A stretch of 64,000 nt of DNA, from assembly GCA_041653595.1 (NCBI GenBank), contig JBAZFB010000007.1, positions 18,527 to 82,526 of the forward strand. Reading direction: 5' to 3'. Both the position numbers and the translations under genes were made by a program. This document shows, piece after piece, positions 6,669 to 33,554 of this stretch. Within the stretch, counting starts at the first letter, position 1. Each line of letters starts with the position of its first letter. The DNA is from Candidatus Omnitrophota bacterium. Lineage in GTDB: Bacteria > Omnitrophota > Gorgyraeia > Pluralincolimonadales > Pluralincolimonadaceae. The notes under the pieces were generated by a model. It saw only the letters and a program-made list of their open reading frames with translations. It did no database searches and was not told where the DNA came from.

Positions 6669-6674
6669 TAATCA

Positions 6675-10329: not shown

Positions 10330-10367
10330 GAGACTCCTCCGCGATGAGTTTGTGGTTTATCGTTGTT

Positions 10368-15586: not shown

Positions 15587-15600
15587 TTTGTCCTCTCCTC

Positions 15601-16257: not shown

Positions 16258-16266
16258 TTAAATCTC

Positions 16267-17433
16267 CTATGCTGCTTCGACCGGACCCCTGTCGCGGCCT
16301 TCGAGCAATACTTCTTCGGCGGCCTCGACCCCTACTCCGGGTTCACCCCTGAATCCCATCTCGGCGAGCGCCATGCCGAGCACGGCGATCGTCATGAGTA
16401 TGTCCGTATCCGTTATATAACCCATATGCGCGATGCGGATAACCTTGCCCTTAAGCTCGGCCTGGCCTCCGGCTATTCCCACGCCGTATTTATCCCTCAT
16501 ATGTTTTACGAGTTTCTCGCCGTCTATGCCTTCGGGTAAGCGCACAGCCGTAACGCCGTTCGAGGGCGCGGTCGGCGCGAAGAGCTTAAGCCCCATCGCC
16601 TCCATCGCCTCGCGGGTCGCGAGAGCCAGTATCTTGTGGCGGTTAAATATCACGTCGAGGCCTTCCTTCTTCATCATCCTCAGCGTCTCGCGCAGCGCGA
16701 TGACCAGCGATATCGCCGGGGTGAAAGGAGTGTCCGTCGCATCGATCGCTTTTTTCGCCTTCTTAAGGCTAAGGTAATATCTCGGACTCTTGGATTTCTC
16801 GACCTTCTCCCACGCCTTCTTGCTCAAAGATATGAATGCGAGCCCCGGGGGTATCATGAGCCCCTTCTGCGAACCGGAGACCACGACGTCTATGCCCCAA
16901 TCGTCGGTCTTTATATCTTCGGCTCCGAGGCCGGAGATCGCGTCGACCGCGATGACCGCGTTATGGGCCTTGGTTATCTGGGCTATCGCTTTGATGTCGG
17001 TCAGCACGCCGGTCGAGGTCTCGCACAGCGTCGTAAAGACCGCCTGTATGCCCGCGTCCTTCTTTAATTCCGCTTCGATGGCTTTCGGGTCGACCGCCTT
17101 GCCCCATTCAACGTTTATTATTATAGGAGTAATGCCGTATGCTTTGCAGAGTTCGGTCCATCTCTCGCCGAATTTACCGCCCTGAACGCATATCGCCTTA
17201 TCGCCCGGCGAAAGCAGGTTGGCGACCGCGGCTTCCATGGCGCCGGTGCCCGAGGAGGTCAACGTTATTACGTCATTTTGCGTCTGGAAAACAAATTTTA
17301 AGAGTTCGCATACTTCCTTAAATATCTCCATGAACTCCGGGGTCCTGTGATGGATTATCGGTTCTGCCATGGCGAGCAATGCCTGAGGCGGGACAGGCGT
17401 GGGTCCCGGCGTCATAAGATAATTCTTTTTCAT
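16267..17433 (-). CDS. class V aminotransferase (serine-pyruvate/phosphoserine aminotransferase type); probably the phosphoserine aminotransferase partner of serA
   Basis: MTPGPTPVP N-terminus and PLP-lysine region (SGSQKGLMIPPG), typical of AGT/class V enzymes. Close to serA. Confidence 0.8.
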   Translation of the reverse strand: MKKNYLMTPGPTPVPPQALLAMAEPIIHHRTPEFMEIFKEVCELLKFVFQTQNDVITLTSSGTGAMEAAVANLLSPGDKAICVQGGKFGERWTELCKAYGITPIIINVEWGKAVDPKAIEAELKKDAGIQAVFTTLCETSTGVLTDIKAIAQITKAHNAVIAVDAISGLGAEDIKTDDWGIDVVVSGSQKGLMIPPGLAFISLSKKAWEKVEKSKSPRYYLSLKKAKKAIDATDTPFTPAISLVIALRETLRMMKKEGLDVIFNRHKILALATREAMEAMGLKLFAPTAPSNGVTAVRLPEGIDGEKLVKHMRDKYGVGIAGGQAELKGKVIRIAHMGYITDTDILMTIAVLGMALAEMGFRGEPGVGVEAAEEVLLEGRDRGPVEAA

Positions 17434-17444
17434 TCCTTACCCTC

Positions 17445-19814
17445 CTAGGTTTGTATTGGTAAATGTTGGTATACGGCGGCTTTCCTGCATTTCCTTTCAA
17501 GCGCTATCTCCAGGACCTGGTCCATATATTCGACGGGTATTATCTTTAAATCCTTTAATACGGCCTTCGGTATCTCCACGAGGTCCTTTTCGTTCTCTTT
17601 CGGTATTATGACCGTCTTGATGCCGACCATGTGCGCGGCGAGTATCTTTGACTTGAGCCCGCCTATCGGCAGGACTTTGCCTCGCAGGGTTATTTCGCCC
17701 GTCATCGCGACGTCTTTTTTTACCGGGCATTTCGTCAGGCTCGATACAAGCGCGGTCGCCATCGTGATGCCGGCCGACGGGCCGTCCTTCGGTATCGCGC
17801 CTTCAGGTACGTGTATATGGATATCCAGTTTCTTATAAAAATTATCATCTATGCCGAATTCCCTGGCGTGCGAGCGGATATAACTCAACGCCGCCTGCGC
17901 CGATTCCTGCATGACCTCGCCGAGTTTTCCGGTCAGGGTCAATTTCCCTTTTCCGGTCATGAGGGTCGATTCTATGGAGATGATATCGCCGCCCGCCTCT
18001 GTCCAGGCAAGCCCCGTGGAGACACCGACCTCGTTCTTCTCTTCCTTCTTCGGCTCGGTGAACTGGACCGGGCCGAGATATTTCTCGATCCGCTTTCCGG
18101 TAAGGCGAATCTTCAGGTCCTTCTCTTTCTTCACGACGTCCTTGGCTATCCGCCTGCAGACGCGCGCTATCTCGCGCTCGAGGTTCCGGACGCCCGCCTC
18201 GCGCGTATACCTGCGCACTATCCTTAATATGGCATCCGCAGTGAATTTTATATTCTCTTCCTTAAGGCCGTGCAGTTTTATCTGCTTGGGGATAAGGAAC
18301 CCCTGCGCGATCTTCACCTTTTCGTATTCGGTATAACCCGAAAGTTTTATCATCTCCATCCTGTCCTGCAGGGGCAGGGGTATATTGTCCTGGAAGTTCG
18401 CTGTCGTAATGAACATGACATCCGAGAGGTCGAACTCCACTTCGAGATAATGGTCGGAAAATGTCGAATTCTGCTCCGGGTCGAGCACCTCGAGCAGCGC
18501 CGCGGCGGGGTCGCCCCTGAAATCCGTGGACATCTTGTCGACCTCGTCGAGCAAAAAGACCGGGTTCCTCGATTTCGCTTTCCTTATGGATTGTACGACG
18601 CGGCCCGGGAGGGATCCGATATATGTCCTGCGGTGGCCGCGTATCTCGGCCTCGTCACGAACGCCTCCGAGGGAGACGCGGACGAAATTGCGGCCGAGCG
18701 TCCGGGCGATGGACTTCGCCAGCGAGGTCTTTCCCACGCCGGGAGGCCCGACGAAACAGAGTATCTGGCCCTTCATCGACTTTACGAGCTTGCGGACGGC
18801 AAGGTATTCGAGGATCCTTTCCTTCGGTTTCTCGAGGCCGTAATGGTCCTCGTTCAATATCTTCTCGGCGTTCTTGATGTCGAGGTTGTCGTCGGTCTTG
18901 ACAGACCACGGCAGCGCGACGAGCCAGTCGATGTAATTACGCGAGACGGTCGCCTCCGGGGAGGTCGGGTACATCCTCGAGAGTTTCTCGACCTCGCGCA
19001 GCGCTATATCCAGCGCTTCCTTCGGCATCTTCGCCTGTTTTATCTTCTCCTTAAGGTCATCAAGCTCGTTCTTATAATCGTCCTTCTGGCCGAGCTCTTT
19101 CTCTATGGCCTTAAGCTGTTCCTGGAGGAAATATTCCTTTTGCGCTTTCTCTATCTGCTTCCTGACGGTAGATGATATCTTTTTTTCTATCTGGAGTATG
19201 CCGATCTCGGAATTGAGGACTTCGGTAAGGCGCTTGATCCTCTCGACCGGATCGATGATCTCGAGTATCACCTGCCTCTCCGCGACCCTCATCGTGAGAT
19301 ACGACGCGACCGTGTCCGCCATCTGGTCCGGGTCCGGGATGTTCGCGATCGTCGCGAACGCCTCGGTCGGGACGCGCTGGTTCAGTTTGACATACTCCTC
19401 GAACTGGTTGACCAGCGAGCGCATCTGCGCCTCGACCTCGATCGTCTTCTCGACCGGCACTGAGGCGTATTCGATCCCTGCATTAAGATATTCCTTGGTA
19501 GGCAGGAGTTTCTTTACCTTCGCGCGGTAGAGCCCCTCGACGAGTAACTTATACGAGCCGTCCGGCAGTTTTACCGACTGGATTATCTGGCCGACCGTGC
19601 CGGACTGGTAGATATCGTCAAGCGAAGGTTCCTCGACCTTTACCGATCTCTGCGCGCAGAGAAGGATCGTCTTATCTTTGGATAAGGCTTCCTCGACCGC
19701 GGCTATGGACTTCTCGCGCCCGACCACAAGGGGGACGACCATAAAAGGAAATACGACCATATCCCTCAGGGGCAGAAGCGGCAATGACTCTTTTAACTGG
19801 TGTTCTTTTTTCAT
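17445..19814 (-). CDS. lon: ATP-dependent Lon protease
   Basis: N-terminal LON domain ([13 protein letters not shown]), AAA+ Walker [10 protein letters not shown], and C-terminal protease domain with catalytic PKDGPSAG. Confidence 0.95.
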
Positions 19815-19836
19815 ATTCTATGGATAGGGAATAAAG

Positions 19837-20445
19837 TTATTTTTTCTTTCCGGTTATGACTTCATCGACCAGGCCGTAGGTCTTCGCCTCTTCGGCGCTC
19901 AGGAAATAATCCCTGTCCGTGTCTTTCTTTATCTTGTCGAGCGGCTGGCCTGTGTGCTTGGCGAGTATCTCTTCTATCTTGTCGCGCATCCTCAATATCT
20001 CTTTCGCCTGGATGCTTATATCCGCGGCCGCGCCCTGCGTCCCGCCCCAGGGCTGGTGCATCATTATGCGCGCGTTCGGGAGGGCGAACCTCTTGCCCTT
20101 CGTGCCGGCGGCTAAAAGTATCGCGCCCATAGAGGTCGCCTGTCCGATGCAGTAAGTGCAGACATCGGGTTTCAAGAACTGTATCGTATCGTAGACCGCG
20201 AGTCCGGAAGTCACGACCCCGCCCGGCGTATTTATGTATACGCTGATGTCCTTATCGGGATCTTCCATCTGCAGGAAGAGCAGCTGGGCGATGACAAGGT
20301 TGGCGACGACATCGTCTATCGGAGTGCCGATAAATATTATCCTGTCCTTAAGGAGCCTCGAATAGATGTCATACGCGCGTTCCCCGCGCCCTGACTGCTC
20401 GACTACCATGGGAACGAGCATCTGCGACCGTTCCTTGTCTGCCAT
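19837..20445 (-). CDS. clpP: ATP-dependent Clp protease proteolytic subunit
   Basis: [17 protein letters not shown] and TYCIGQAASMGA(ILL) active-site region, 202 aa. Confidence 0.95.
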
Positions 20446-20446
20446 T

Positions 20447-21721
20447 TTAGACCTCCTCTATTTTCGCGTTTTCAATGAGGAACTCCATCGCCTTGTCCTG
20501 CGATATCTCGGCTTTAATGTCTTCCATGAGGTTATTTTCTTCGAGATATTTTTTCGCTTCCTCTGCCGTCTTCTTGGCTCGCGCCGCCAAAAGCTCGACG
20601 CGCTTGCTGATATCCTCTTCGGACGCTGCCAGCTTCTCCAGCTCGGCGATCTTATCGAGTATAAAATACGACTTCACTCGCCTGACCGCCTCGTCCCTGA
20701 ATTTCTGTTTCATGGCGGCCTCTTCCTTCTCGATATCCTCTTTCTTATATCCCATATACTGGAGCCTGTTCTGCGCGTCTTTTAACAGGTGCTCGGCCTC
20801 CGTGTCCACCATCATCTCCGGGGCCTCGAAATTCGCGCCCTTGATGAGCTGGCCTACGAGGTCCTCTTCCACCTTGAACCTCGCCTCCTGTTCCTTCGCC
20901 TTGGTGAGCTCTTCGCGGATATTCCCGCGAAGCTCGAGCAGGGACTTGAACCCGCCGACGTCCTTGGCGAACTCGTCGTCGATCGCCGGCGCTATCTTCT
21001 CCTTGACCTGGTTGACGGTTATTATGAATACGGCCTGTTTTCCGGCCTGCTCCTTGCGCGGATAATTCAGCGGCATTATGGTATTGACCGTCCTCGTATC
21101 GCCGGGGACCGCGCCCAAAAGCTGGCTCATGAACTCGGGTTTCGTAGATTTCGGGTTGAGCGGGAACCAGACGTTCTCGTTCTTCTCGCCGGGCTTGGCC
21201 TCTACCGATATCTCGACGTCGCAAAGGCACCAGTCGTTCTCCTTCGCCGGGCGCCCCTCGACATCCTTAAGCTGGGAGTGCCTCTCCTGGAGGTCCTCTA
21301 TCACCTTATCGACATCCTCGGTCGCGACCTGGGCTTTCTGCCTCACGGCCTTGAGGCCTTTGTAGTTCTTCAATTTCACTTCGGGCCGCACGTGGACCTC
21401 CGCCTTGAACGAGAGCTGCTTCTCCGCCTCGAAAATTATATCGGTAACCGACGGCATGCCTATCATGTCGATGCCGGCGTCTTTTACCGCCTTCATCACC
21501 GCCTCGCCGATGAGGCGCTTCTTGACCTCCTCGCCGGCCTTGTCCTTATAATGCGTCTCCACGAGATAGCGCGGGGCCTTGCCTACCCTGTAACCCGGCA
21601 CCTCGGCGTATTTCTCGATCTCGCCGATTATCTCTTCGTATTTATTTTTTATATGGTCCGCGGGGACCTCTATCTCGAAACCCCTGCGCGAACCTCCAAG
21701 GTCTTTGCTTTTTACTTTCAT
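20447..21721 (-). CDS. tig: trigger factor (ribosome-associated PPIase chaperone)
   Basis: N-terminal ribosome-binding domain ([10 protein letters not shown]...), central FKBP-like domain and C-terminal arm. 424 aa, immediately upstream of clpP as usual. Confidence 0.9.
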
Positions 21722-22309: not shown

Positions 22310-22362
22310 CTCACCCTCTTTTAGCTAAAACATCTTTAGGGTGAGCAACTTCGTTGCTCACA
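22310..22362 (-). promoter_or_regulatory. two mutually exclusive RNA hairpins in the lptB-hpf leader
   Basis: Seen directly: a 9-bp stem GUGAGCAAC/GUUGCUCAC with a GAAG (GNRA) loop at 22341-22362 that overlaps the lptB stop. An alternative 8-bp stem CUCACCCU/AGGGUGAG at 22310-22345 shares the CUCAC nucleotides, and its loop contains the palindrome UUUUAGCUAAAA. Confidence 0.4.
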
Positions 22363-23083
22363 TTCTAAACTTTTCGCCTAAGTAGATCTGCCTCGCCTTC
22401 GGGTCGGAGATGAGCTCTTCCGCGGTGCCGGATATCAGGACTTTTCCGTCGGACATTATATAAGACCTGTCGGTTATGGAAAGCGTTTCGCGGACATTAT
22501 GGTCGGTCAAAAGTATGCCGAGCCCTTTCTCCCTCAGCGAACAGATTATCTCCTGGCACTCGGCGACCGCTATCGGGTCGATGCCCGAGAACGGTTCATC
22601 TAACAATATGAAAGTGGGTTCGGTCACTAGCGCGCGGGTTATCTCCAGGCGCCTGCGCTCGCCGCCGGACAAAGTATAGGCGTAGTTCCTGGCGAGATGC
22701 GATATCCTCAATTCGCCCAGGAGCATCTCAAGCCTCTTGCGGCGCTCCTTCTTCGATATCCTTAGCGTCTCGAGGATGGCCATTATATTCTCCTCGACGG
22801 TAAGTTTCCTGAATATCGACGGCTCCTGCGCAAGGTATCCTATGCCGCAGCGGGCGCGCCTGTGCATCGGCAGGCCGGTTATCTCCTGGTTATCAAAGAA
22901 TATCTGGCCGCTATCCGGCTCGACCAGGCCGACTATCATATAAAAGGTCGTCGTCTTCCCCGCGCCGTTAGGCCCGAGCAGTCCAACTATCTCTCCGCGC
23001 CTGACCGATATATCGACCCCGTTGACAACGCGGCGGCGGTTATATGTCTTTTGGAGACCCTTCGTTTCGAGGAGGTGCATCAA
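22358..23083 (-). CDS. lptB: LPS export ABC transporter ATP-binding protein
   Basis: Walker [13 protein letters not shown] signature LSGGERRR, Walker B, 241 aa with the LptB-typical C-terminal extension. Adjacent to an OstA-like gene. Confidence 0.9.
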
Positions 23084-23089
23084 AGATCC

Positions 23090-23872
23090 TTATTTTTGCT
23101 TTTCTTTCTTATCTTCGGGATATATCATTACCTTTGGAGATCCCGTGAGGATGACCTTCTGCTCAGGCGCGAGGTAAGTCGCCTCGTCGCTGTACGTCCA
23201 GCTGCCTTCCCTCATTATCTTCACGTTGCCCCTGGCTACTATTTTCGAGACCTGCTTTGTCTTCGTGTCGTAATATGCCGTCGCCGTGTCGCAGAATACC
23301 TGGCCGCGCTCGTCTTCTACCTTGACGTTCTTGTTGAAGACGGCGTAGCTTTTGCCGTAATCTATCTCCATCGGCCCGTCGCAGGTTATGGTCGTAGGCG
23401 TTTTAGTGGCGAACTCGCCTACGCTCTTTCCCTTTGCGTCGGACTTCATCACGACCGGCTTATCGGTCACTACCTTCTGTTCGGCGTTCTTCCAGTCGAG
23501 CGCGTCGGTCTTCATCTCCGTGCCGTTAGTGCCGGTCACGACGACGTTCGACTCGAAATGCGCGTCGTTCGAACCCCTGTTGAATGAGCCTTTGTCGGCC
23601 GTAAGCGTCATGTCGCTCTGGTCGCCGTAGGCCTTAGCGACGATATCGGTAAGATTGACCACCTCGGAGACTATATCCGCGGATTTGCCCTGGACCTCCC
23701 ATTTCTTCTTGCCGGTCTTCTCGAAACCGGACAGCGAGAACGCCATCATCCTCTGGTCGCCCGAGATCTCCGCCTCTTCCTCGGGCGGGGCCGGCGCTTT
23801 CGCCTGTTTGCCTTCACAGCCCGTGAACAAGAACACCACCAGCAGGGCGGTCGCGACCTTATTTAATCTCAT
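23090..23872 (-). CDS. LptC/LptA-family (OstA-like beta-jellyroll) periplasmic LPS transport protein, lipoprotein-anchored; possibly a fused LptC-LptA
   Basis: Lipobox LFTGCEG, then two OstA-like segments (FSLSGFEKTGKKKWEV... and ITCDGPMEIDYGKSYAVFNKNVKVED...IVARGNVKI). Sits between lpxL and lptB. Confidence 0.7.
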   Translation of the reverse strand: MRLNKVATALLVVFLFTGCEGKQAKAPAPPEEEAEISGDQRMMAFSLSGFEKTGKKKWEVQGKSADIVSEVVNLTDIVAKAYGDQSDMTLTADKGSFNRGSNDAHFESNVVVTGTNGTEMKTDALDWKNAEQKVVTDKPVVMKSDAKGKSVGEFATKTPTTITCDGPMEIDYGKSYAVFNKNVKVEDERGQVFCDTATAYYDTKTKQVSKIVARGNVKIMREGSWTYSDEATYLAPEQKVILTGSPKVMIYPEDKKEKQK

Positions 23873-24801
23873 TTTGAGCCCTTCATTTCATTCAGGACGA
23901 ACCCTTTCGCAGTCTGGGGGTTCGTCTTCCATCTGTTATGCATCCAGACCCATTGCGAAGGGTACTTCCGTATATACGACTCGACGACCTTCGACCACTT
24001 TTCCGTATTTATTTTTATATCGTTCTCTTTATTTCCGGTTATCTCGAGCTCGAGCGGCTCCTCGACATATATGGTGTGGCTATTCCCCTCGCGCACTATG
24101 AACATCGGGATTATCGGCACGGCCGTTGCGAGGGCAAGTATGACCGGCGCGGTCGGCGTGTAAGCCGGACGCCCGAAGAAATCCACAAAAACCCCGTCGA
24201 CGGAGGATATATCCTGGTCGGCAAGTATCGCGATCGATTGCCCGCCGCGCAGCAGCCTGAGTATCGTCTTTACCGACTCGTCCCGCATCACGACGTTGAC
24301 GCCCATCTTCCGGCGCAGGCCGTTCATCCAATCGTCAAACTTCACGTAACGCAGCCTCCGGGCGAGGACGTTCACCGGGTATTTTTTGAGGCCGAACCAT
24401 CCGGCAAGGAGCTCCCAGTTGCCTAGATGCGCCGAGAGGACTATAAAACCCCTCTTCTGCGAAAGAGCCTTGTCTACTATATCGAGGCCTCTTATCCTGA
24501 CGTGCCTGTCTATGTTCCGGGTGGTCAGTTTAGAAGCGCTTAATATCTCAAAAAGGTTCTCGCCTAAATTGCGGAAGATACCCTTGGCGATAGCCCTTAT
24601 TTCAGCTTCGGTCTTCTCTCCCTTGAACGCGATCCTGAGGTTCTCTATCGCGCTCTTCCTGTGGCCGGGCACCAAAAAAAAGGCGCACTCTCCCATTCGC
24701 CTGCCTAAAAATTTGTTAATTTTTATCGGGAAGAGAAGCGAGATAAAACTGGCTGTCCTAAGAAGGTAATAAAGATACCTTCTCCTGATTCTGTGCTTCA
24801 C
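23869..24801 (-). CDS. lpxL: lipid A biosynthesis late acyltransferase (LpxL/HtrB/LpxM family)
   Basis: N-terminal hydrophobic anchor, the NLxxxFP-type motif (ENLRIAFKGE), HLGNWEL acyltransferase H-box, and C-terminal KYPSQWVWMHNRWK. GTG start. Confidence 0.85.
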   Translation of the reverse strand: MKHRIRRRYLYYLLRTASFISLLFPIKINKFLGRRMGECAFFLVPGHRKSAIENLRIAFKGEKTEAEIRAIAKGIFRNLGENLFEILSASKLTTRNIDRHVRIRGLDIVDKALSQKRGFIVLSAHLGNWELLAGWFGLKKYPVNVLARRLRYVKFDDWMNGLRRKMGVNVVMRDESVKTILRLLRGGQSIAILADQDISSVDGVFVDFFGRPAYTPTAPVILALATAVPIIPMFIVREGNSHTIYVEEPLELEITGNKENDIKINTEKWSKVVESYIRKYPSQWVWMHNRWKTNPQTAKGFVLNEMKGSK

Positions 24802-24809
24802 AACGGGTT

Positions 24810-24838
24810 ATAATAGCAAAAGATATGCGTGAAGTCAA
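24810..24838 (-). promoter_or_regulatory. candidate sigma70-type promoter TTGACT-N17-TATTAT directly upstream of lpxL; the -10 box ends 8 nt before the GTG start, so the transcript may be leaderless
   Basis: Minus-strand sequence cgcTTGACTtcacgcatatcttttgcTATTATaacccgttGTG. Read directly from the 40-bp pilP-lpxL gap. Confidence 0.35.
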
Positions 24839-24841
24839 GCG

Positions 24842-25258
24842 CTAACGCCCTATCCTGAGGGTCCTTATCTCATCGCCGGACTTGACGGTCACGGCGTCTT
24901 TCGTTATCTCCAATATCTTGTATCCCGATACCTGGTCGCCTACTTTCGCCACCTTGCCGTCTATTATGCAATAGCTCTTCCCGGGGTCGCAGAAGATCCC
25001 GCTAAGAGATGCCGGGCCTGCGCCGGCCTCGGCCGGCCCGCCGCCGATCGCGAACGGGTCCCTGCCCCAGGATTTGAACGAGCTTGTCATACGCTCTTTT
25101 TGGAAGACGGGTTTTTGGGCCGGGGCTGCGGCCGCGGGAGCGGTTTTCGCCTCCTCCGGCTTTTTAGCGCGCGGCTTCAGGACGGCCATCGCGGTAACGG
25201 CAATAAATATCGCGATGACTACCCCAAGGATGACTAATTGCTGTTTATTCTTGTCCAC
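24842..25258 (-). CDS. pilP: PilP/GspC-like pilus assembly protein (TM anchor plus C-terminal beta domain)
   Basis: N-terminal TM, Ala/Pro linker, RDPF motif (WGRDPFAIG), and a C-terminal segment GYKILEITKDAVTVKSGDEIRTLRIG resembling the PilP/GspC HR domain. Follows pilO. Confidence 0.55.
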   Translation of the reverse strand: MDKNKQQLVILGVVIAIFIAVTAMAVLKPRAKKPEEAKTAPAAAAPAQKPVFQKERMTSSFKSWGRDPFAIGGGPAEAGAGPASLSGIFCDPGKSYCIIDGKVAKVGDQVSGYKILEITKDAVTVKSGDEIRTLRIGR

Positions 25259-25826
25259 TTTCGGCCTCTTCCAGGGTATACGTGAACACCTTCATATCCA
25301 CTATTAATTTCGGGAACGTCCTCTCGTCTTTCGCGATCCGGAATTCCGGGACGGCCGCAAAACTGCTCTCCAGACTATCCAACGATCCGAGATAATCCCC
25401 GAGGCTCTTATAGGCCGCCCTCATCTTTATGTCTATGGGTAACGCCTTGCAATTGAACGCCGCGGACATCTCAGGGAGCGGTTCGGCCGGCTGGGGCGTT
25501 ATCGAGATGAAATCTATGTTGAGACCCTTACCCTTCTTCGCCAACTCCTCGAGTATAGCCGGCGTCGGGCTCTTTGAAGGGAGCCGCTTGCGCAGGTCCC
25601 CGACTTTCGCCTCTACCCCGGCCTTATCCAATTTGAACGCGGAAAGTTTATTGCGACCGGCGGTAAGCTGGGCATTGAGCTCGCGCCAGGTCTTCTTCTT
25701 CTCGGCCAGTTCCTTCCTCGCCGGAGCGAGAACCACCGCGAACAGAATAAGGAATATGACGATCCCGGTGATGACCGCCACAGCCGTCTTATTCTTCTTC
25801 AGTCCTATATTTTTCAGAACAGGCAT
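25245..25826 (-). CDS. pilO: PilO/GspM-like pilus assembly protein
   Basis: Single N-terminal TM, coiled-coil segment and C-terminal ferredoxin-like region. Position directly after the PilM-PilN fusion. Confidence 0.6.
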   Translation of the reverse strand: MPVLKNIGLKKNKTAVAVITGIVIFLILFAVVLAPARKELAEKKKTWRELNAQLTAGRNKLSAFKLDKAGVEAKVGDLRKRLPSKSPTPAILEELAKKGKGLNIDFISITPQPAEPLPEMSAAFNCKALPIDIKMRAAYKSLGDYLGSLDSLESSFAAVPEFRIAKDERTFPKLIVDMKVFTYTLEEAESGQE

Positions 25827-27280
25827 TTGATATCGAACTCCGTATTTGAATTCATGCCTTCGCCCATCTTGGCGTTCAATAGCGTCACGCTCTTGAACAT
25901 GCCTCCTTCAAGCGACGATATGATGCCGGACAGGGCCTTTTCGCGGTTCTTGACGTCGCCTGTGATCTGGCCGCTTATCTCTAAACCGGACGCGTCAGCC
26001 TTAAGGCTCGAGAGGACCGCGTATTTCGGGAGCCTGTTGCTGAGTTCTTTTAACGCCTCTTTCCACGGCGGGATGCCTGAGAGGACCGAGTCGATAAACG
26101 CCTTCCTTTCGGAGAGTTCTACCGCGAGGCGCTCATAATGCGATGTTATCTCCAGCTGGGGTTTCATGACCTCCATCTCCTTTATCCCGTAGCTTATCTT
26201 CTTGTCGTAGTTAGCCAGCTGCATCCTCATGCCGATAAAAGAGAGCACCAGGGAAACGGCGACCGCGGCTACCACCGACTCGACCGCCGCTTTCTCGAAT
26301 GTGCGTATGGTCTTTTGTTTTAATTCCGGCGGCAAAAGGTTTATCCCCCGGCCCTCGCTTAAGGCCGCGCCTACGGCGTTGGCGAAGATGCCTGATGCCG
26401 GGGCCGGATCGGCGAGCGCGCCCTTTTCCAGAGAGATCCCCTTAAATGGGTCTCCCTGAGAGACCGGAACGCCGATGTTCTCCTGTAAAAATTCCGCCAG
26501 TCCCTTTATCGACGCGCCGCCTCCGGTTAGGAAGACCGACCCGACCTTGTCTCCGGACGATTCGTTCCCGTAATAGTGGAGGGACCGGTCGATCTCCTGC
26601 GCCAGCCGTTCCGCCGCCGGGCGGTTCAGGTCTTTGGTGATCGCGGCGGCGCCTGAATTGACATTTCTTGTGAACGCAAGATAACCGTCTTTTATGATAT
26701 TTATCCCGGTATAATTATGCCCGATATCCACGACCGCGGCGGCCTCGCCTCCCTTAAGGCCCATGCGGTTCGACAGCTTCTCTATGGCAATAGGCGGCGG
26801 GAAGAGCGCGGCCGGGCTGATGCCCGCCCCGGCGAGGGCTCCCACTATACTGTCTACCGCCTTTGCCGGCATCACGGCCAGCTTCACTTTGTATTTGCTT
26901 ACGCCTCCCTCGGCGGTCTCCTGCAGTTTGTAATCAATAAGGAGCTCGTCAAGCGGCAGGGATACCTTCTCTTTCACCTGCCATCTCACTGCCTCGGGTA
27001 TCTCCCGGTCCGACATCTTTGGTATCGTGAAATAACGCAGGCATCCTTCCGGGCAATCGGCTACGCAGGTGACCCTGGCGGATTTGACACTCATGCCGGC
27101 CACGGCCTTCTTTACGCCTTCCTCTTTCGGGACGAGGCCGGCTTTTTTTAAAATGATATCTCCGGCAGGCCCGGTCCCTATCTCGACCGCTTTTATCGCC
27201 GAGGAACCGATATCTATGCCTATATATATCTCTTTCTTTTTGAAATTCATTGCTCGTAACTCTCTTTCCAGGAAGAGCAT
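25814..27280 (-). CDS. pilMN: PilM-PilN fusion protein (actin-like ATPase domain fused to a PilN transmembrane/periplasmic domain); GspL-like architecture
   Basis: Residues ~10-330: PilM-like actin fold (IGIDIGSSAIKAVE..., FLTGGGASIKGLAEFL). Residues from ~330: classic PilN opening (GINLLPPELKQK), followed by a TM and a periplasmic domain. 488 aa. Confidence 0.85.
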   Translation of the reverse strand: MLFLERELRAMNFKKKEIYIGIDIGSSAIKAVEIGTGPAGDIILKKAGLVPKEEGVKKAVAGMSVKSARVTCVADCPEGCLRYFTIPKMSDREIPEAVRWQVKEKVSLPLDELLIDYKLQETAEGGVSKYKVKLAVMPAKAVDSIVGALAGAGISPAALFPPPIAIEKLSNRMGLKGGEAAAVVDIGHNYTGINIIKDGYLAFTRNVNSGAAAITKDLNRPAAERLAQEIDRSLHYYGNESSGDKVGSVFLTGGGASIKGLAEFLQENIGVPVSQGDPFKGISLEKGALADPAPASGIFANAVGAALSEGRGINLLPPELKQKTIRTFEKAAVESVVAAVAVSLVLSFIGMRMQLANYDKKISYGIKEMEVMKPQLEITSHYERLAVELSERKAFIDSVLSGIPPWKEALKELSNRLPKYAVLSSLKADASGLEISGQITGDVKNREKALSGIISSLEGGMFKSVTLLNAKMGEGMNSNTEFDIKCLF

Positions 27281-27666
27281 GCAAGGAACTTGCCGCTTCC
27301 ATCGTCCGTATAGACGGCGACGAGGCGCGCTTTTATCTCTTTCCCCGTTGCGGGGAGGTCAAGAGGCATCTTGCCCCGCACATCGATAGTTAACGTATCG
27401 GAAACGCGGGTGACCGCTACATACTCGACCGTCCCGTCGCCGAGCGGTATGGGCGCGGGAACGGCCGCGACCGGACGCCCGGCCCGCACATCGCTCAATA
27501 TATTGTCAACGCCTGCCTGGGCCAGATATAACGCCTTCGCATCGTCGAGCTGAAATCCGGCGGATCTTGTATTGGAAGAGACCATGGATACTATAGCCAT
27601 CGTCATGACGGCGAGGGCCGTCATGAACACAAATGTGATTATCAGCGCGAAACCACGCCCTCTCAT
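27247..27666 (-). CDS. minor pseudopilin, GspK/PilX-like (short)
   Basis: N-terminus MRGRGFALIITFVFMTALAVMTMAIV resembles GspK (no Glu5). 139 aa. Located after the GspI-like and GspJ-like genes. Confidence 0.5.
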   Translation of the reverse strand: MRGRGFALIITFVFMTALAVMTMAIVSMVSSNTRSAGFQLDDAKALYLAQAGVDNILSDVRAGRPVAAVPAPIPLGDGTVEYVAVTRVSDTLTIDVRGKMPLDLPATGKEIKARLVAVYTDDGSGKFLACSSWKESYEQ

Positions 27667-28184
27667 ATGCCCCTCGGCCTGACTTTAGCCATGAATTGGA
27701 TCGATTCCGCCCCGCTCGCAAATGTCAGGTCGATCCCCACGACCCTTATCTGGGACGGGACTATCACGAGCATCGGGTTGGTGTTATCATCGGGCCTGTA
27801 ATACCTGAACGCCAGCGACTGGACGTTCCGCGCCACCACCGGCCCGCCGGCGCCGTCCTGCGTGCGCAGCAGGTTGCCGCGCGCCAGCCGGTAGCGGATG
27901 GTCTCCTGGCTGCCGTCGCCGTCGACATCCGCGAGGAAAGTCAGGCTGCGGGTGTCCGTCGGCGCTATAAAAGACGTGGCCTGCCTCAGGTCGCATGACA
28001 TAGTATTCAGTCCGTAAGATATATCTTTAATGAAACCTCCCCTCGTCATTTCTTCGCCCAATATCCTTAACCCGACCATGTAAGTAAGGGCTATGGCGCA
28101 CATTAAAACGGAAACGAGCGCCATATTAAAGACGACCTCTATCAGGGTGAGGCCGCGCCCGTCCCTAATTGACATCCGAGACAT
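27663..28184 (-). CDS. minor pseudopilin, GspJ/PilW-like (prepilin-type N-terminus)
   Basis: GLTLIEVV prepilin cleavage/methylation motif followed by a hydrophobic helix, 173 aa. Confidence 0.7.
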   Translation of the reverse strand: MSRMSIRDGRGLTLIEVVFNMALVSVLMCAIALTYMVGLRILGEEMTRGGFIKDISYGLNTMSCDLRQATSFIAPTDTRSLTFLADVDGDGSQETIRYRLARGNLLRTQDGAGGPVVARNVQSLAFRYYRPDDNTNPMLVIVPSQIRVVGIDLTFASGAESIQFMAKVRPRGI

Positions 28185-28536
28185 ACGTGACTAAGGATAT
28201 CTTCACGTCTCCCGACCTTTGCCTCCAATAGATATTGACCGTTACCTGTTTAAGGTTCGGTTTAGCGCCCAGGACCAGGACCTCCCTCTCAAATAACGCG
28301 TAAGGGCTGCCTGCCGCCGTCCTCGCCTCGGGGACTATCGAGGCATACGGGACGTTGCGAATCTCTTCCATCTTCACCTGCGCAAGCGCGGTAGCGAGCA
28401 CCGTATTCTCGTTCTCGACGCTGCCGTAAATGCCCATACTTAATATTTGCAGCAGCACTACCGCGCCGGCCGCGAAAAGCGCGATCACGATCAGGATCTC
28501 TATCAGCGTAAAACCGCGCGCGCCGATTTTGGCCAA
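28165..28536 (-). CDS. minor pseudopilin, GspI/PilV-like (prepilin-type N-terminus)
   Basis: GFTLIEILIVIALFAAG motif, 123 aa. Confidence 0.7.
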   Translation of the reverse strand: MAKIGARGFTLIEILIVIALFAAGAVVLLQILSMGIYGSVENENTVLATALAQVKMEEIRNVPYASIVPEARTAAGSPYALFEREVLVLGAKPNLKQVTVNIYWRQRSGDVKISLVTYVSDVN

Positions 28537-28539
28537 AAG

Positions 28540-28995
28540 CTAAAAACCTCCCGAACCCGGAGTCCCGTTTGAGACGAAGATATCATCGCCTGTCGCGCCT
28601 GCGGGATTCACCGTTCCCGTGGCGCTGATACCTGTTATCGTAGCCGTCCTGTTGGGGCCGAGAGACCAGATCACATAATACGCTCCGCTGACCGCATATC
28701 TGTACTGCGTCGTCGCCGAGGCGCCGAACGGGTCATATAAAACAGAGCCTAGTATCTGCGGGATGGCCGTCGTCAACTGGGTCTCCCAACTACCGCCCGC
28801 TGCCGGATACGTATGCGGGTTGCGGTGCATATACCACGATTCTACCGCTGCCTGCAACGTCCTCAATTCCGCGGCGGCCTTGGTCGTGTTGCCCTCGTCG
28901 CGCATGCCTCCGAACCTCGGCAGGGCGATCCCTATCAGTATCGCGATGACCATGATGACGATAAGAAGTTCTACAAGCGTAAACCCCTTCCTCAT
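28540..28995 (-). CDS. gspG: major pseudopilin / type IV pilin, GspG-like
   Basis: KGFTLVELLIVIMVIAILIGIALP is a canonical class III signal plus the GspG/PilA N-terminal helix. Start trimmed to the ATG at 28993-28995, preceded by AAAGGAGGAAG. Confidence 0.85.
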   Translation of the reverse strand: MRKGFTLVELLIVIMVIAILIGIALPRFGGMRDEGNTTKAAAELRTLQAAVESWYMHRNPHTYPAAGGSWETQLTTAIPQILGSVLYDPFGASATTQYRYAVSGAYYVIWSLGPNRTATITGISATGTVNPAGATGDDIFVSNGTPGSGGF

Positions 28996-29014
28996 CTTAC
29001 TTCCTCCTTTCGTT

Positions 29015-29066
29015 AATGGTAGATGGTGAACATCTACCATTCGCGCTTGACGCATATGTCAAGCGC
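29015..29066 (-). promoter_or_regulatory. two consecutive perfect hairpins/palindromes between gspF and the major pseudopilin gene
   Basis: 29043-29066: GCGCTTGAC-GCATAT-GTCAAGCGC (9-bp arms), abutting the gspF stop. 29015-29041: AATGGTAGATG-GTGAA-CATCTACCATT (11-bp arms). Both read directly. The SD and ATG of gspG lie 20 nt downstream. Confidence 0.45.
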
Positions 29067-30281
29067 TCACCTTCTTAACACTTTTACCAGGTCGAACATA
29101 GGAACCAATATCGAGGCCATGATGACGGCCACGACACTACCCATTATCAATAAAAATGCCGGCTCGAGAAGGGACGTGAGCCTCTTTATGTGATAAGCGA
29201 CGGCCGCCTCGTAGAGATCGGCGACCTTATTCAGCATTATGTCGAGGTTGCCGGTCTCCTCGCCTGCCGCGATCATCTGGACCGTATCCGGAGGGAACTC
29301 CGCGCTCGCTTTAAGCGGCTCTGATATCTTGCTCCCGCCGCGCACCGCCTCGCGCGCTTTCGCGACCACGCGCGATAAGACCTCGTTGCCGATAGTCGCC
29401 TCGAGTATCTCCAGCGATTCGAGTATATCCACGCCGCTCGCCGAAAGCGTGGAGAGCATCCGGGCGAACCTGGCTATGGCCGCCTTGCGGATGAGCGGAC
29501 CGACCACCGGGACGGCGAGTTTAAGGCCGTCGACCTTTAAGCGCCCTCCGCGGGTATCCGCGTAGATACGCGCGGCCAGGAAAAGCGCGGTCAGGCCGAG
29601 GGCGAAAATGTACCAGTAATCTTTTATCGCCATCCCCGCGCCGTAGAGTATGCGCGTGACGATCGGGAGCGGAATATTTGCCCGCAAGAATATATCCGCG
29701 AACTTCGGTATTATGAACGTAACTATGAATAAAATAACGACGGCCGCGGCTACGGACAGGACCGCGGGATACAATAACGCGCCGCTGACCTTCTGCCTAA
29801 GGTCCAGCTCGTTCTCGCCGAAATCGGCCAGCCTCTTCAACACGAGGGAAAGGTTGCCGCTCGCCTCGCCCGCCTTGACCATGCTTATCGTGAGCCTGGA
29901 AAAAGCCAGCGGGTGGGCCATAAGCGCCTCAGAGAGCGAAGAACCTGTCTCCACCTTGACCGTGACGTCTTCCAGTAATTTTCTAAGCCTCCTGTTCTCC
30001 GTCTGAGCGGAGATGGTCCTAAGCGAGGTCAAGAGGGGCAATCCCGCTTCGAGCATATTCGATAATTGGATATTAAAGAATATCATATCCTCGGGTTTTA
30101 TGCCCCCGAACCCGCCGATAAAGTCCCCGACAGAAAATCCGCCGGAGGCGACCGAGACCCCGGTTATAACATACCCCATCTTGCGGAGTTTTTCGACGAG
30201 ATCGGCCTCTGCCGGAGCTTCCATCACCCCTTCCACGAATTTCCCCGATTCGTCTCTCGCCTTATAGCGGTATAGGGACAT
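29067..30281 (-). CDS. gspF: type II secretion / type IV pilus inner-membrane platform protein (GspF/PilC family)
   Basis: 404 aa with duplicated T2SSF domains and three TM segments; typical GspF/PilC. Confidence 0.95.
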   Translation of the reverse strand: MSLYRYKARDESGKFVEGVMEAPAEADLVEKLRKMGYVITGVSVASGGFSVGDFIGGFGGIKPEDMIFFNIQLSNMLEAGLPLLTSLRTISAQTENRRLRKLLEDVTVKVETGSSLSEALMAHPLAFSRLTISMVKAGEASGNLSLVLKRLADFGENELDLRQKVSGALLYPAVLSVAAAVVILFIVTFIIPKFADIFLRANIPLPIVTRILYGAGMAIKDYWYIFALGLTALFLAARIYADTRGGRLKVDGLKLAVPVVGPLIRKAAIARFARMLSTLSASGVDILESLEILEATIGNEVLSRVVAKAREAVRGGSKISEPLKASAEFPPDTVQMIAAGEETGNLDIMLNKVADLYEAAVAYHIKRLTSLLEPAFLLIMGSVVAVIMASILVPMFDLVKVLRR

Positions 30282-30283
30282 GC

Positions 30284-31981
30284 CTATTCTTCCTGTTGGG
30301 TGACCCTCAGGACTTCCTCGAGGGTAGTTATGCCGGCCTTGACCTTCTCTATGCCGTCCTCCTGCATCGTCTTCATTCCGTTCTTGATAGCGGCCTTCCT
30401 TATCTCCGCGGAAGAGGATTTTGCGACGGTAAGCGCCCTTATGGCGTCGTCGGGAAGCATCAATTCGAATATGCCGACCCTGCCTTTATACCCGGTATGC
30501 AGGCACTTGTCGCAGCCCCTGCCGCGGTAAAACTTTACCTGTTTCGATGATGACAGGCCCACCTCTTCCGATAATTTCGCGGAGGGGACGTAGTTCTCCC
30601 TGCAATCCTTGCATATGACGCGGACGAGCCTCTGGGCTATGACGGCCAGGACCGAAGAGCTGACCAGGAACGGTTCGACGCCCATGTCCACGAGGCGCGC
30701 GACCGCGCCGGGAGCGTCGTTGGTATGGAGCGTGGATAATACGAGATGGCCGGTAAGCGCCGCCTGTATCGCCACCTCGGCGGTGTCGAGGTCGCGGATC
30801 TCGCCGACCATTATGATGTCCGGGTCCTGCCGGAGGATGGAACGCAGGCCGTTCGCGAAAGTGAGCCCGGCCTTCGTATTTATCTGCATCTGCCGCACGA
30901 GCTTCAACCTGTATTCGATCGGATCCTCTATCGTCACGATATTCTTTTCCGGGGAATTTATGGTGCTTAACGAGGAATAGAGCGTGGTCGTCTTTCCGGA
31001 GCCGGTCGGGCCGGTCACGAGTATTATGCCGTAAGGCCTGCGTATAAGTTTCTCGTATACGTTAAGCATCTCCCGGGAGAAACCGAGTTCGCTCAATCCC
31101 AAGAGGATGCTGTTCAGGTCGAGGAGCCTTATGACGACATTCTCGCCGTATACGGTAGGTATCGTCGAGACCCTGCAGTCTATCTGGCGGTTCTCGATCT
31201 TCAGCTGGAACCTCCCGTCCTGGGGGACCCTCCTCTCCGCGATATCCATTCCCGAGAGGATCTTTATCCTCGATATTATCGCCGACTGGAGGTCTTTCGG
31301 CGGGGAGATGACCTCGTGCAGGACGCCGTCAACCCTGTATCTCGTCCCCAGGAAGATCTCGTCGGGTTCTATGTGTATATCCGAGGCCCCGGCCTTTATC
31401 GCCTCGCTTATCAGGAGATTCACGAGCTTGACTATCGGCGCCTCCTCGACGAGCCCCTGCAGGGCCTTGAGGTCGGATTCCGCGCCCTCTTTTATCTGAA
31501 ATTTATCTTTATCGACGGATTTTACGATATCATCCATCGTCCCGCGCGCGCCGTAATACTGGTCGAAGGCCCCGATAAGTTCCTTCTCCGGGACGACGAC
31601 AGGCTCCACTTCGCATTTGGCCTTAAGGCGGGCTTCGTCCAGGGCAAAGATATCCAGCGGGTCTACCATGGCGATGGTAAGGGTCCCTCCGATCTTGAAT
31701 AAAGGAAGGATCATGTTCTTTCTGCAGAAATTTTCGGGGAGGATATCGATGACTTTTGGGTCGATGAAATAATTCGAGAAATCTATGCGCGGGATGCCGA
31801 GCTGCTGCTCGAAAAAGGAGATGATGGCGTCCTCTTCGACCATGCCGAGCCTTGTCAGGACGCGGCGAAGAGGCTCTTTTGTCCTGTCGGCCTCCTCCTT
31901 AGCCTTCTTGAGCTTCTCCGGAGTAACAAGGCCGCGCTCGACCAGAGCTTCGCCAAGAGACTTCTTCTCTCCCTTCGGCAT
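30284..31981 (-). CDS. gspE: type II secretion / type IV pilus assembly ATPase (GspE/PilB family) with an N-terminal T2SSE_N-like domain
   Basis: Walker A GPTGSGKTT, Asp box, His box, and a tetracysteine motif (CKDC...CDKC). N-terminal ~150 aa extension. ATG at 31979-31981 is preceded by AAGGAG; the track start at 31987 is GTG. Confidence 0.95.
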   Translation of the reverse strand: MPKGEKKSLGEALVERGLVTPEKLKKAKEEADRTKEPLRRVLTRLGMVEEDAIISFFEQQLGIPRIDFSNYFIDPKVIDILPENFCRKNMILPLFKIGGTLTIAMVDPLDIFALDEARLKAKCEVEPVVVPEKELIGAFDQYYGARGTMDDIVKSVDKDKFQIKEGAESDLKALQGLVEEAPIVKLVNLLISEAIKAGASDIHIEPDEIFLGTRYRVDGVLHEVISPPKDLQSAIISRIKILSGMDIAERRVPQDGRFQLKIENRQIDCRVSTIPTVYGENVVIRLLDLNSILLGLSELGFSREMLNVYEKLIRRPYGIILVTGPTGSGKTTTLYSSLSTINSPEKNIVTIEDPIEYRLKLVRQMQINTKAGLTFANGLRSILRQDPDIIMVGEIRDLDTAEVAIQAALTGHLVLSTLHTNDAPGAVARLVDMGVEPFLVSSSVLAVIAQRLVRVICKDCRENYVPSAKLSEEVGLSSSKQVKFYRGRGCDKCLHTGYKGRVGIFELMLPDDAIRALTVAKSSSAEIRKAAIKNGMKTMQEDGIEKVKAGITTLEEVLRVTQQEE

Positions 31982-32048
31982 CACCACTCCTTGTAAGAAG
32001 GGCTGCTTTTTTACGACTTTTTAAATTGTTAACTTATTCCGATTAAAT

Positions 32049-32078
32049 AGTATACGTGAGCGGGATTTTTTTGTCAAC
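32049..32078 (-). promoter_or_regulatory. candidate sigma70 promoter TTGACA-N18-TATACT in the kdsC-gspE intergenic region, reading into gspE
   Basis: Minus-strand sequence cgtTGACAaaaaaatcccgctcacgTATACTatttaatcgg, ~60 nt upstream of the gspE ATG. AT-rich 108-bp gap. Confidence 0.45.
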
Positions 32079-32095
32079 GTATTTTGGGCTGGGGA

Positions 32096-32605
32096 CTATT
32101 CCGGCCATTTATTCTGGGCCTTGAGGATGATCTCTATAAGCTCGCGTATCGCGCCGCGGCCGCTTCCTGCATTCGTGGTGTAATGGGCGGCGGATTTGAC
32201 CTCGGGCCTGCTGTAAGGGACCGCGACGGCGAGGCCGGCGCGCTTCATGATCGGCATATCTATCAGGTCGTCACCGATAAAGCACGCCTCTTCATCGGTA
32301 ATCTTGAATATCCTGAGGAGCTTTTCATAGGCCGCGCCCTTGTCTTTCACGTTCATAAAGGCCTTGGTGATATGGCAGACCTTCGCCCTGCGGGAGACTA
32401 TGCGGGATTTCTTGGCGGTCACTATCGCGGACTTCAGGCCGGCCCTCCACCAGAGGGTCAGGCCGTACCCGTCCTGAACGTCGAACGCCTTGAACTCGTC
32501 GCCGTAGTTGTCGTATATTATCTTGCCGTCTGTCATGACCCCGTCGACGTCCAGGATAAGCAGCTTTATCTTGGCGGCCCTTTCCCGGATATCCATACTA
32601 AACAA
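32096..32605 (-). CDS. kdsC: 3-deoxy-D-manno-octulosonate 8-phosphate phosphatase (HAD family)
   Basis: LLILDVDGVMTDG HAD motif I and GDDLIDMP motif, 169 aa. Downstream of kdsD. Confidence 0.9.
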   Translation of the reverse strand: MFSMDIRERAAKIKLLILDVDGVMTDGKIIYDNYGDEFKAFDVQDGYGLTLWWRAGLKSAIVTAKKSRIVSRRAKVCHITKAFMNVKDKGAAYEKLLRIFKITDEEACFIGDDLIDMPIMKRAGLAVAVPYSRPEVKSAAHYTTNAGSGRGAIRELIEIILKAQNKWPE

Positions 32606-33554
32606 GCCCCGCCTTCAAGAGATCCTGCACGTCGACAAGGCCTATAGGCCTCCTCTTATTGTCGACAACCGGTATCTCGTCTATCTTCCTCTCGCGCAGG
32701 ATCCGGAACGCGTCCGCGGCGAGCATCTCTTTCGATATGGTTATAGGGTTCCTTGTCATGACTTCCCTGACCTGTCTCAGGGGGAGCGCGGCGTCTTTTC
32801 CAAGGTGCCGCCTCAGGTCGCCGTCGGTGAATATGCCGACTAGGACGCCTTTCTTGTTCACTACGCTTGCCGAACCGGCCCGCGCCTCGGTTATTCTAAG
32901 GAGGACGGCCTTTACCTTCGCGTCATCTTTCACTACCGGGTTTGCCTTGCCTTTCCTCATGATATCCCCGACTTTCAGGATAAGCCTCTTGCCGAGGGAG
33001 CCGCCCGGGTGATAGAACGCGAAATCCTCTTCTTTAAAACCGCGGCGGTCGAGCAGGGTTATCGCGAGCGCGTCTCCCATCGCGAGCATCGCTGTCGTCG
33101 ACGCGGTTGGGGCGAGGTTCAGGGGGCACGCCTCCCTCTTGACCGCGACGTTAAGCACGACATCGCTGTACCTGGCGAGCGAAGACTCCGTATTCCCCAC
33201 CATCGCTATGAGCTTCGCGCCGATCTTCTTTAAAGTGGGAAGGAGCCTTATAATCTCCTCAGTCTCTCCCGAATTTGATATGGCCAGGACGACATCGTCT
33301 TTCGTGACCCTGCCGAGGTCGCCGTGTATCGCGTCGGCCGGATGCAGGTAGAGGCTGGGCGTCCCGGTCGACGACAATGTCGCCGAGATCTTCGCGCTGA
33401 TAAAACCGGGTTTCCCCATTCCGGTAACGACCACCTTTCCCCTGCAGGCAAGCATGAGCTTGACCGCCTTTTCGAAATTCGCGTCGACCCGCTTTATGAG
33501 CGAAAAAATAGCTTCCGCCTCGATCTTAAGGACCTCCTTAGCCCGCCTCATCAT
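32598..33554 (-). CDS. kdsD: arabinose-5-phosphate isomerase (SIS domain plus tandem CBS domains)
   Basis: SIS domain (VVVTGMGKPGFISAKISATLSSTGTPS) and C-terminal CBS pair, 318 aa. Confidence 0.9.
   Translation of the reverse strand: MMRRAKEVLKIEAEAIFSLIKRVDANFEKAVKLMLACRGKVVVTGMGKPGFISAKISATLSSTGTPSLYLHPADAIHGDLGRVTKDDVVLAISNSGETEEIIRLLPTLKKIGAKLIAMVGNTESSLARYSDVVLNVAVKREACPLNLAPTASTTAMLAMGDALAITLLDRRGFKEEDFAFYHPGGSLGKRLILKVGDIMRKGKANPVVKDDAKVKAVLLRITEARAGSASVVNKKGVLVGIFTDGDLRRHLGKDAALPLRQVREVMTRNPITISKEMLAADAFRILRERKIDEIPVVDNKRRPIGLVDVQDLLKAGLV

Follow-up and report, generated by a model that had tools for sequence, protein, structure and literature searches.

A T2SS-like gene module between kdsC and lptCA in Candidatus Omnitrophota, probably encoding a type IV filament machine that works with a distal secretin

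Within a stretch of 64,000 nucleotides from contig JBAZFB010000007.1 of a Candidatus Omnitrophota bacterium (here called the window), nine minus-strand genes for a type IV filament machine are found in a block of lipopolysaccharide (LPS) genes, where they separate kdsC from lpxL. Our conclusion is that these genes probably encode a machine with the architecture of a type II secretion system (T2SS), belonging to a module family common in the Omnitrophota, which is transcribed from its own promoter, uses a secretin encoded elsewhere, and owes its position among LPS genes to history. None of the nine genes is disrupted, and relatives have conserved all of them. An earlier note on this DNA had counted ten filament genes, while the list that it gave itself sums to nine; the genes that it named, their coordinates and minus-strand orientation, and a content and order that follow the T2SS-like logic E-F-G-I-J-K-L-M-C are all borne out by our analysis.

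If our reading is right, an unlinked prepilin peptidase (56048-56827) would process the four prepilins of the module, and the GspE-type ATPase and GspF platform would build a short GspG-type pseudopilus, primed at its tip by the I-, J- and K-like minor pilins. A GspL-like PilM-PilN fusion and a GspM/PilO-like protein would link the ATPase with the periplasm, and the HR-type beta domain of a GspC/PilP-like protein would dock on the N0 domain of the secretin encoded elsewhere. Folded proteins might leave the cell through that secretin, or a short fibre might be displayed.

The module opens with a GspE/PilB-type assembly ATPase (30284-31987, minus strand, as are all genes of the module), whose likely start is the ATG at 31981, preceded by AAGGAG. 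It is matched by Pfam T2SSE at 475 bits and, over its N-terminal domain, by MshEN at 80 bits. Against the curated models it scores 652.4 with TIGR02533 (gspE), above the cutoff of 630.25, and 658.8 with TIGR02538 (pilB), below the cutoff of 675.65; among PDB structures the best matches to it are PilB (543 bits) and GspE (467 bits). We considered using the PDB or NCBIfam scores to separate GspE from PilB, and rejected this because the scores are near-equal and do not discriminate. The platform protein of GspF/PilC type (29067-30281) carries two T2SSF repeats (205 bits) and scores 364.5 with TIGR02120 (GspF), under the cutoff of 424.

Four prepilins follow. The major pseudopilin (28540-29055, with a likely start at 28995) has an N_methyl match, the leader MRKG/FTLVELL with E5, and a mature length of ~147 residues. 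The window's protein matches only N_methyl and the N-terminus of TIGR01710, and its family is seen in its relatives: when we pooled 148 orthologues of the small module proteins from related loci and scanned them with Pfam, T2SSG was matched by 21 (best E 2.9e-9), the pool holding 26 major pilins. The major subunit is therefore of GspG type, the family to which the major pseudopilin of a T2SS belongs. It has no cysteines, and so lacks the disulfide-bonded D-region of a type IVa major pilin. The GspI-like minor pseudopilin (28165-28536; N_methyl, ARG/FTLIE, Glu5) aligns over its full length with TIGR01707 (gspI) at 28 bits, under the cutoff of 44, and four pooled orthologues match T2SSI. The pilin in the J position (27663-28184) has the class III signal motif GRG/LTLIE, with Glu5, and no family match; it is assigned by position.

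The fourth prepilin, in the K position (27247-27666; PilX_N, GRG/FALII), is truncated, at 139 residues, and lacks E5. A missing Glu5 is typical of GspK and PilX. Its orthologues carry a variety of heads. In sister subclades they reach 503 residues and contain T2SSK, T2SSK_1st and HHH_3 (L003:8490-10001, L004:8493-10004), each of these families being matched by six pooled orthologues, only among the 503-residue proteins. At L022:8593-9453, L029:9122-9964 and L036:9184-9978 the protein has 264-286 residues and bears an F5/8 type C carbohydrate-binding head, while others have unknown domains (340-420 residues) or no head at all (139 residues in the window's subclade, 135 in L005). A regex scan of the window found no GspH-like fourth E5 pilin, nor any further prepilin, in keeping with the earlier statement that GspH is absent. 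A T2SS needs a prepilin peptidase, which may be unlinked, and the window encodes one of PilD/GspO type at 56048-56827 on the minus strand (Pfam A24_N_bact 121 bits, Peptidase_A24 74 bits), which we presume to be the processor of the four prepilins. It is the sole prepilin peptidase of the window and lies between aroE and aroC, 24 kb upstream of the pilin genes.

The L position is occupied by a PilM-PilN fusion (25814-27280 or 25814-27250; Pfam PilM_2 88 bits, PilN weakly), in which an actin-like cytoplasmic domain, one transmembrane (TM) segment and a PilN-like periplasmic domain follow one another. This is the topology of GspL, as had been suggested, and the protein scores 26 with TIGR01709 (GspL), under the cutoff of 65. 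It is identical to NCBI MFA5339349.1 and to one JGI protein, and 96% identical to proteins of two Omnitrophota metagenome-assembled genomes (MAGs), GCA_028716565.1 and GCA_028714115.1. The PilO/GspM-like bitopic protein (25245-25826) is matched by Pfam PilO at 43 bits; among the pooled orthologues, 26 match PilO and six T2SSM.

The last gene (24842-25258) encodes a GspC/PilP-like protein of 138 residues with an N-terminal TM segment, a Pro/Ala linker, a WGRDPF motif and a C-terminal beta domain, and no PDZ domain. That the beta domain is HR-type, as the earlier note had proposed, is indicated by four lines of evidence, each of them weak and all in agreement. The protein matches NCBIfam GspC_delta at E=1.4e-4. 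Profiles of its orthologues find the GspC HR domain 2lnv as top PDB match (E 0.14-0.23). Foldseek, given an AlphaFold (AF2) single-sequence model with pLDDT 68 overall and 78-88 in the C-terminal beta domain, returned GspB 4wfw, GspC-GspD 3oss_C (root-mean-square deviation 2.5 Å), LspC and the PulC HR domain as four of its six best matches, none with E<0.05. Lastly, eight pooled orthologues match Pfam T2SSB and five match T2SSC. The WGRDPF motif and the core of the beta domain are near-invariant in 38 orthologues, copies without an adjacent secretin included, and this fits a binding partner that has been retained.

The secretin that we suppose to be this partner is not at the locus. In a Pfam scan of the ~60 open reading frames (ORFs) of the window there was no Secretin (GspD) match, nor a second, PilT-like ATPase of the T2SSE family; the earlier report that the locus has neither a secretin nor a retraction ATPase thus holds. 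In a published detection model for T2SS, gspD is a "loner" that may be encoded apart (PMC6668835), and there is therefore nothing unusual as such in a Gsp-type cluster that lacks a secretin of its own. Secretins paired with this HR-type protein are common in the phylum, homologues of the 138-residue protein standing immediately upstream of a secretin in the orthologous locus L022 and in the distant systems L006, L057 and L071. That of L022 (Pfam Secretin 142 bits) comes directly after the HR protein in the sole orthologous module so arranged, and belongs to a large Omnitrophota family with 1171 matches. In L071 (closed genome CP070684.1) a more distant paralogous module is followed by a secretin of the L022 family and an ExeA/MshM-like AAA_22 gene; in L006 a secretin of a second family (2055 matches) follows a PilMN-PilO-P set like that of MSH or type IV pilus (T4P) systems.

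Two further observations concern secretins. At L072:1-8051 (CP070797.1) a giant gene of 7,263 residues lies immediately upstream of a PilM-like fragment, and is followed by three small genes, a P-like gene, an L022-family secretin and an AAA_22 (ExeA-like) gene. Outside the LPS context, the genes after the P-like gene encode SNF transporters, histidine kinases, a GT9 enzyme, GDH and a PMT_2 enzyme; we considered these proteins as divergent secretins and rejected them. As to what lies beyond the window, four proteins encoded close to its ends had no identical counterpart among recorded sequences.

How the module came to lie among LPS genes was approached through related loci, sampled by two different queries: a PilMN profile scan of species-representative genomes, which gave 61 loci, and an LptC-LptA profile scan of metagenomes, which gave 80 loci that were annotated jointly with the genome loci. 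In the window, 7.1 kb of T2SS-like genes together with lpxL separate kdsC from lptC, which in the canonical locus follow each other immediately. In 64 related contigs kdsC is directly followed by lptCA, the full order in uninterrupted loci being rfaE-kdsB-kdsA-kdsD-kdsC-lptCA-lptB-tig-clpP. Two contigs (L137, L142) have the junction kdsC-lpxL-lptCA without the filament module, possibly as an intermediate or a state of secondary loss, and 29 loci have the module upstream of lptCA. The synteny comparison thus upholds the proposal that the module is inserted into the kdsC-lptCA junction. Among loci at 49-96% PilMN identity, gene order is unchanged from rfaE through lon.

In a neighbour-joining tree of LptB, ClpP and Tig, midpoint-rooted and built on loci from both queries, the root separates all module-bearing loci, even the distant L027, L050 and L056, from all uninterrupted loci. 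The simplest reading of this pattern is one ancient insertion at the kdsC/lptCA junction, kept by vertical descent; the module would have arrived a single time, in an ancestor shared by one large Omnitrophota clade, and would have been inherited since. Independent, repeated insertions at the same junction had been suggested by a neighbour-joining tree of PilMN, and became less likely once the LptB, ClpP and Tig tree was available.

Two sigma-70-type promoters frame the module on the minus strand. The first, TTGACA-17-TATACT (11/12), lies at 32049-32077 in the gap between kdsC and gspE, and its hexamers and spacing are identical in 13 orthologous loci. The second, TTGACT-17-TATTAT (10/12, with a TG extended -10), lies at 24810-24838 in the 40-nt gap after the module, ahead of lpxL-lptCA-lptB; it is kept as TTGACT-17-TATCAT or TATTAT in 14 loci (13 and the window) and is degenerate in four more distant ones. 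Promoter-like matches across the region are at chance level, with 9 found and 7.6 expected, and the two best of them fall exactly in the two intergenic gaps. In these orthologous loci PilMN has diverged to about 49-62% identity. That both hexamer pairs are conserved despite this divergence is footprint evidence for two real promoters, in line with the earlier mention of sigma70-like promoters at these places. Judged from the sequence, the module and lpxL-lptCA-lptB would be separate transcription units.

Several points weigh against the reading of these genes as a T2SS-type machine, for which the distal secretin is assumed. Of 47 orthologous loci whose flanks could be read, ~46 have no secretin up to 10 kb to either side of the module. 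When the best 120 matches of each secretin family were compared, no secretin could be tied to a module-bearing kdsC-linked genome, a negative that is weak, coming as it does from the best 120 matches per family; the NCBI accessions of 20 secretin clusters are outside the accession blocks of these genomes. The ATPase is no farther from PilB than from GspE, and the GspF, GspG, GspI, GspL and GspC equivalents all fall below their curated T2SS cutoffs. This genome encodes a truncated K-like tip pilin, and the F5/8 lectin head of some orthologues looks more like part of an adhesive pilus than of a secretion piston. Finally, no terminator is predicted between the module and lpxL, and read-through into the lpt genes is therefore possible.

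It is conceivable that there is no secretin to be reached. In such a case the module-bearing clade would lack one altogether and the HR protein would dock elsewhere, for example on the Lpt bridge or LptD, leaving a pseudopilus confined to the periplasm that serves outer-membrane or LPS biogenesis, or spans the envelope, in ultra-small bacteria. This picture arises because none of the secretins found could be placed in a kdsC-linked genome that bears the module, and because the place beside lptCA-lptB is kept over deep divergence. We consider it very improbable, and give equally little credence to its general form, a secretin-independent periplasmic pseudopilus coupled to LPS transport or outer-membrane biogenesis. 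The module does stay between kdsC and (lpxL-)lptCA-lptB even where PilMN identity is down to 23-30% (L027, L050, L056), and this, the rarity of an adjacent secretin (absent in ~46/47 orthologous loci) and the lack of a terminator before lpxL count in favour of such a coupling. However, the module and the lpt unit have separate, conserved promoters, many orthologous modules are far from any LPS gene, and the other major clade (64 contigs) has this LPS block but no module. Conservation extends, moreover, to the HR-type domain, which contacts a secretin in the GspC-GspD structure 3oss and in the PulD-PulC outer-membrane complex 6hcg. A secretin comes right after the HR protein in the orthologue L022 and in the distant L006, L057 and L071. 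The flanking synteny is not specific to the module, either: the whole neighbourhood, including the unrelated tig, clpP and lon, is syntenic across the clade, and position alone therefore says little.

The earlier note had raised a possible functional link to outer-membrane biogenesis on account of this position. Given the module's own promoter, the unrelated contexts of orthologues, the synteny that extends to non-LPS genes and the module-free LPS block of the other major clade, we do not uphold that link. On our reading of a T2SS-type machine with a distal secretin, the module would be transcribed from its own promoter, and its place in the LPS block would be historical rather than functional.

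A second alternative is that the nine genes build a surface-exposed fibre for adhesion or attachment, similar to T4P or MSH pili, for which a secretin encoded elsewhere would still be needed. We think this unlikely, though its probability is far from negligible; it would suit attachment to host or prey by small, possibly epibiotic bacteria, and in the literature pilus and T2SS loci are tied to a predatory lifestyle in the phylum. Its case begins with the Pfam families PilM_2, PilN and PilO and with the ATPase, which has an MshEN domain and finds PilB as its best PDB match. The ATPase also scores 40.3 with NF053729, a model of the MshE-type cyclic di-GMP (c-di-GMP) motif, against a cutoff of 38. 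This is borderline, and c-di-GMP binding by the ATPase is uncertain, since several key Arg and Gln positions of the motif are replaced, which counts against such a fibre. The F5/8 type C head on the K-position tip pilin in L022, L029 and L036 would suit adhesion, whereas the tip pilin of the window has no head domain (139 residues) and sister subclades have T2SSK domains in its place. Also in favour of a fibre, copies of the module outside the LPS context lie beside CheY-like regulators and a GGDEF kinase. On the other side stand the GspG-type major subunit (T2SSG in 21 pooled orthologues), which has no cysteines for a D-region, the gene order of gsp operons, and the lack of a retraction ATPase in the window. 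With regard to output, then, secretion is favoured by the GspG-type subunit, the T2SSK domains of the sister clades, the order of the gsp genes and the lack of PilT in the window; a fibre is favoured by the PilM, PilN and PilO signatures, by the MshEN domain of the ATPase and by the F5/8 type C heads of some orthologues. Either output may be the true one.

The third alternative, a competence pseudopilus for DNA uptake, is suggested by the order of the first six genes (E, F, the major pilin and the minor pilins), which is that of comG operons, and by weak matches to ComGA, ComGB, ComGC and ComGE. These matches are all the same well under the equivalog cutoffs where scored: ComGA 266 (cutoff 300), ComGB 148 (240) and ComGC 32 (75). 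There is a dprA gene in the window, but it is 21 kb off, in an unrelated run of genes; ComEC lies near the paralogous secretin locus in L071. PilMN, PilO and the HR protein are foreign to comG operons, and no DNA-binding minor pilin was detected, the 148 pooled proteins giving five weak ComP_DUS matches. It would surprise us greatly if the module served competence.

The same nine-gene order as in the window was found in about 47-49 of all loci fetched. Nearly all of these are Omnitrophota MAGs, a few being labelled Scalindua or Planctomycetia, and the closest protein matches to the window come from Omnitrophota MAGs at 96-100% identity. Beyond the kdsC-linked clade, one to four genes of ~120 residues mostly precede the module; in L005 they encode CheY-like response regulators and lie beside a PAS-kinase-GGDEF gene. 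At L029:3-6236, L033 and L041:2-6214 an ORF of >2,000 residues, with no GspE match, runs off the edge of the locus directly upstream of GspF, in the usual place of GspE. The Omnitrophota literature reports T2SS/Tad-like loci with gspD beside giant genes, to which these ORFs may be related. At L042 an E-F-pilins-PilMN module is present in tandem (4030-12517 and 14208-21557), with a histidine kinase between the copies.

The surroundings of the module in the window, from rfaE to lon, form a single, tightly packed, co-directional run on the minus strand. Upstream are rfaE, kdsB, pyrG, kdsA, kdsD (32598-33554; SIS and CBS in Pfam) and kdsC (32096-32605; a HAD hydrolase); downstream come lpxL (23869-24801; Lip_A_acyltrans), an LptC-LptA fusion lipoprotein (23090-23872), lptB (22358-23083; ABC_tran), hpf, tig, clpP and lon. 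The fusion matches Pfam LptC and LptD_N, and TIGR04409 LptC at 59 (cutoff 38). Its 260 residues comprise LptC (9-145) and an OstA/LptA-like part (168-249), with an apparent lipobox, LFTGC, in place of the TM anchor, and the fusion is kept in about 100 related loci. In the window (17445-20445, minus strand), as in all related loci, lon comes directly after clpP, with no clpX between.

Other features of the window are recorded here for completeness. About 55 of the 60 ORFs are on the minus strand, and the GC skew is negative across 1-64000; this very long co-directional run interleaves unrelated pathways, with pyrG within the kds genes and pilD within the aro genes. The LPS core region contains two fusion enzymes on the minus strand, a 650-residue protein joining a second LpxL-like acyltransferase to an Elm1-like domain (45756-47708) and a 700-residue fusion of GT4 and GT9 glycosyltransferases (43657-45759). 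Topoisomerase I (50922-53219, minus strand) has an N-terminal ThiS-like, ubiquitin-fold domain (Pfam ThiS, E=5e-11). At 42633-43709 the longest ORFs are on the plus strand and have no Pfam match, and a GT1-like motif, EGFGLSIVEA, occurs near 42838 on the minus strand, which may hold the true gene, frameshifted or miscalled.

If our reading is correct, the compact nine-gene T2SS-like module is typical of Candidatus Omnitrophota. Its operon is of Gsp type yet bears PilM, PilN and PilO signatures, and a PilM-PilN fusion occupies the place of GspL; the module would therefore be a natural intermediate for the study of how components of the T2SS arose from T4P alignment proteins. The interchangeable heads in the K position (T2SSK, F5/8 lectin or none) hint that targets differ between lineages, in a phylum whose members are believed to be predators or to depend on hosts. 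There is also a warning here for annotation: a conserved place within an LPS block can reflect an ancient, separately transcribed insertion amid all-round synteny.

We found no description of the nine-gene module, or of its position between kdsC and lptCA, in the Omnitrophota literature, and regard it as an undescribed, lineage-specific variant of a known machine. With the T2SS of Proteobacteria (Gsp/Pul/Xcp) it shares the order E-F-G-(I-J-K)-L-M, an ATPase that passes the GspE cutoff, a GspG-family major subunit, a K-position pilin without E5, the topology of the protein in the L position, a protein with a putative HR-type domain, the lack of a retraction ATPase and a peptidase encoded apart. 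It differs in that the protein in the L position is recognisably a PilM+PilN fusion and not a member of the GspL family, and in that the C-like protein has 138 residues (TM, linker, HR) without PDZ or coiled-coil and is encoded at the 3' end rather than before gspD. Unlike T2SS loci, that of the window lacks GspH and GspN and has no secretin in or near it, its GspK is truncated, and most of its components fall under the Gsp cutoffs. 

The type IVa pilus (PilBCD and PilMNOPQ) has in common with the module the PilM_2, PilN and PilO domains, a PilP-like HR-fold protein, a PilB-like MshEN ATPase, four prepilins and a PilD-type peptidase. In the window, however, PilM and PilN are fused, and lpxL instead of pilQ follows the P-like gene, so that there is no complete pilMNOPQ set; PilT and PilU are absent, the major subunit is short, cysteine-free and of GspG type, and the genes form a single E-to-P operon rather than separate pilBCD and pilMNOPQ loci. 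The MSHA locus (mshIJKLMN-EGF) and the loci L006 and L071 resemble the module in having a PilM-N-type fusion, a PilO-like and a P-like protein and an MshEN ATPase, and the P-like proteins of L006 and L071 are homologous to that of the window (26-29% identity, with WGRDPF in common). There the secretin, joined in L071 by the ExeA/MshM-like AAA_22 gene, comes directly after the P-like gene, whereas the locus in the window has neither an MshL secretin nor an MshM (AAA_22) gene. As for the kdsD-kdsC-lptC-lptA-lptB locus of diderms, its flanking genes and their order are those seen here. The differences are that rpoN is absent and hpf follows lptB, that LptC and LptA are fused in one lipoprotein, and that, throughout one clade, nine T2SS-like genes and lpxL are interposed.

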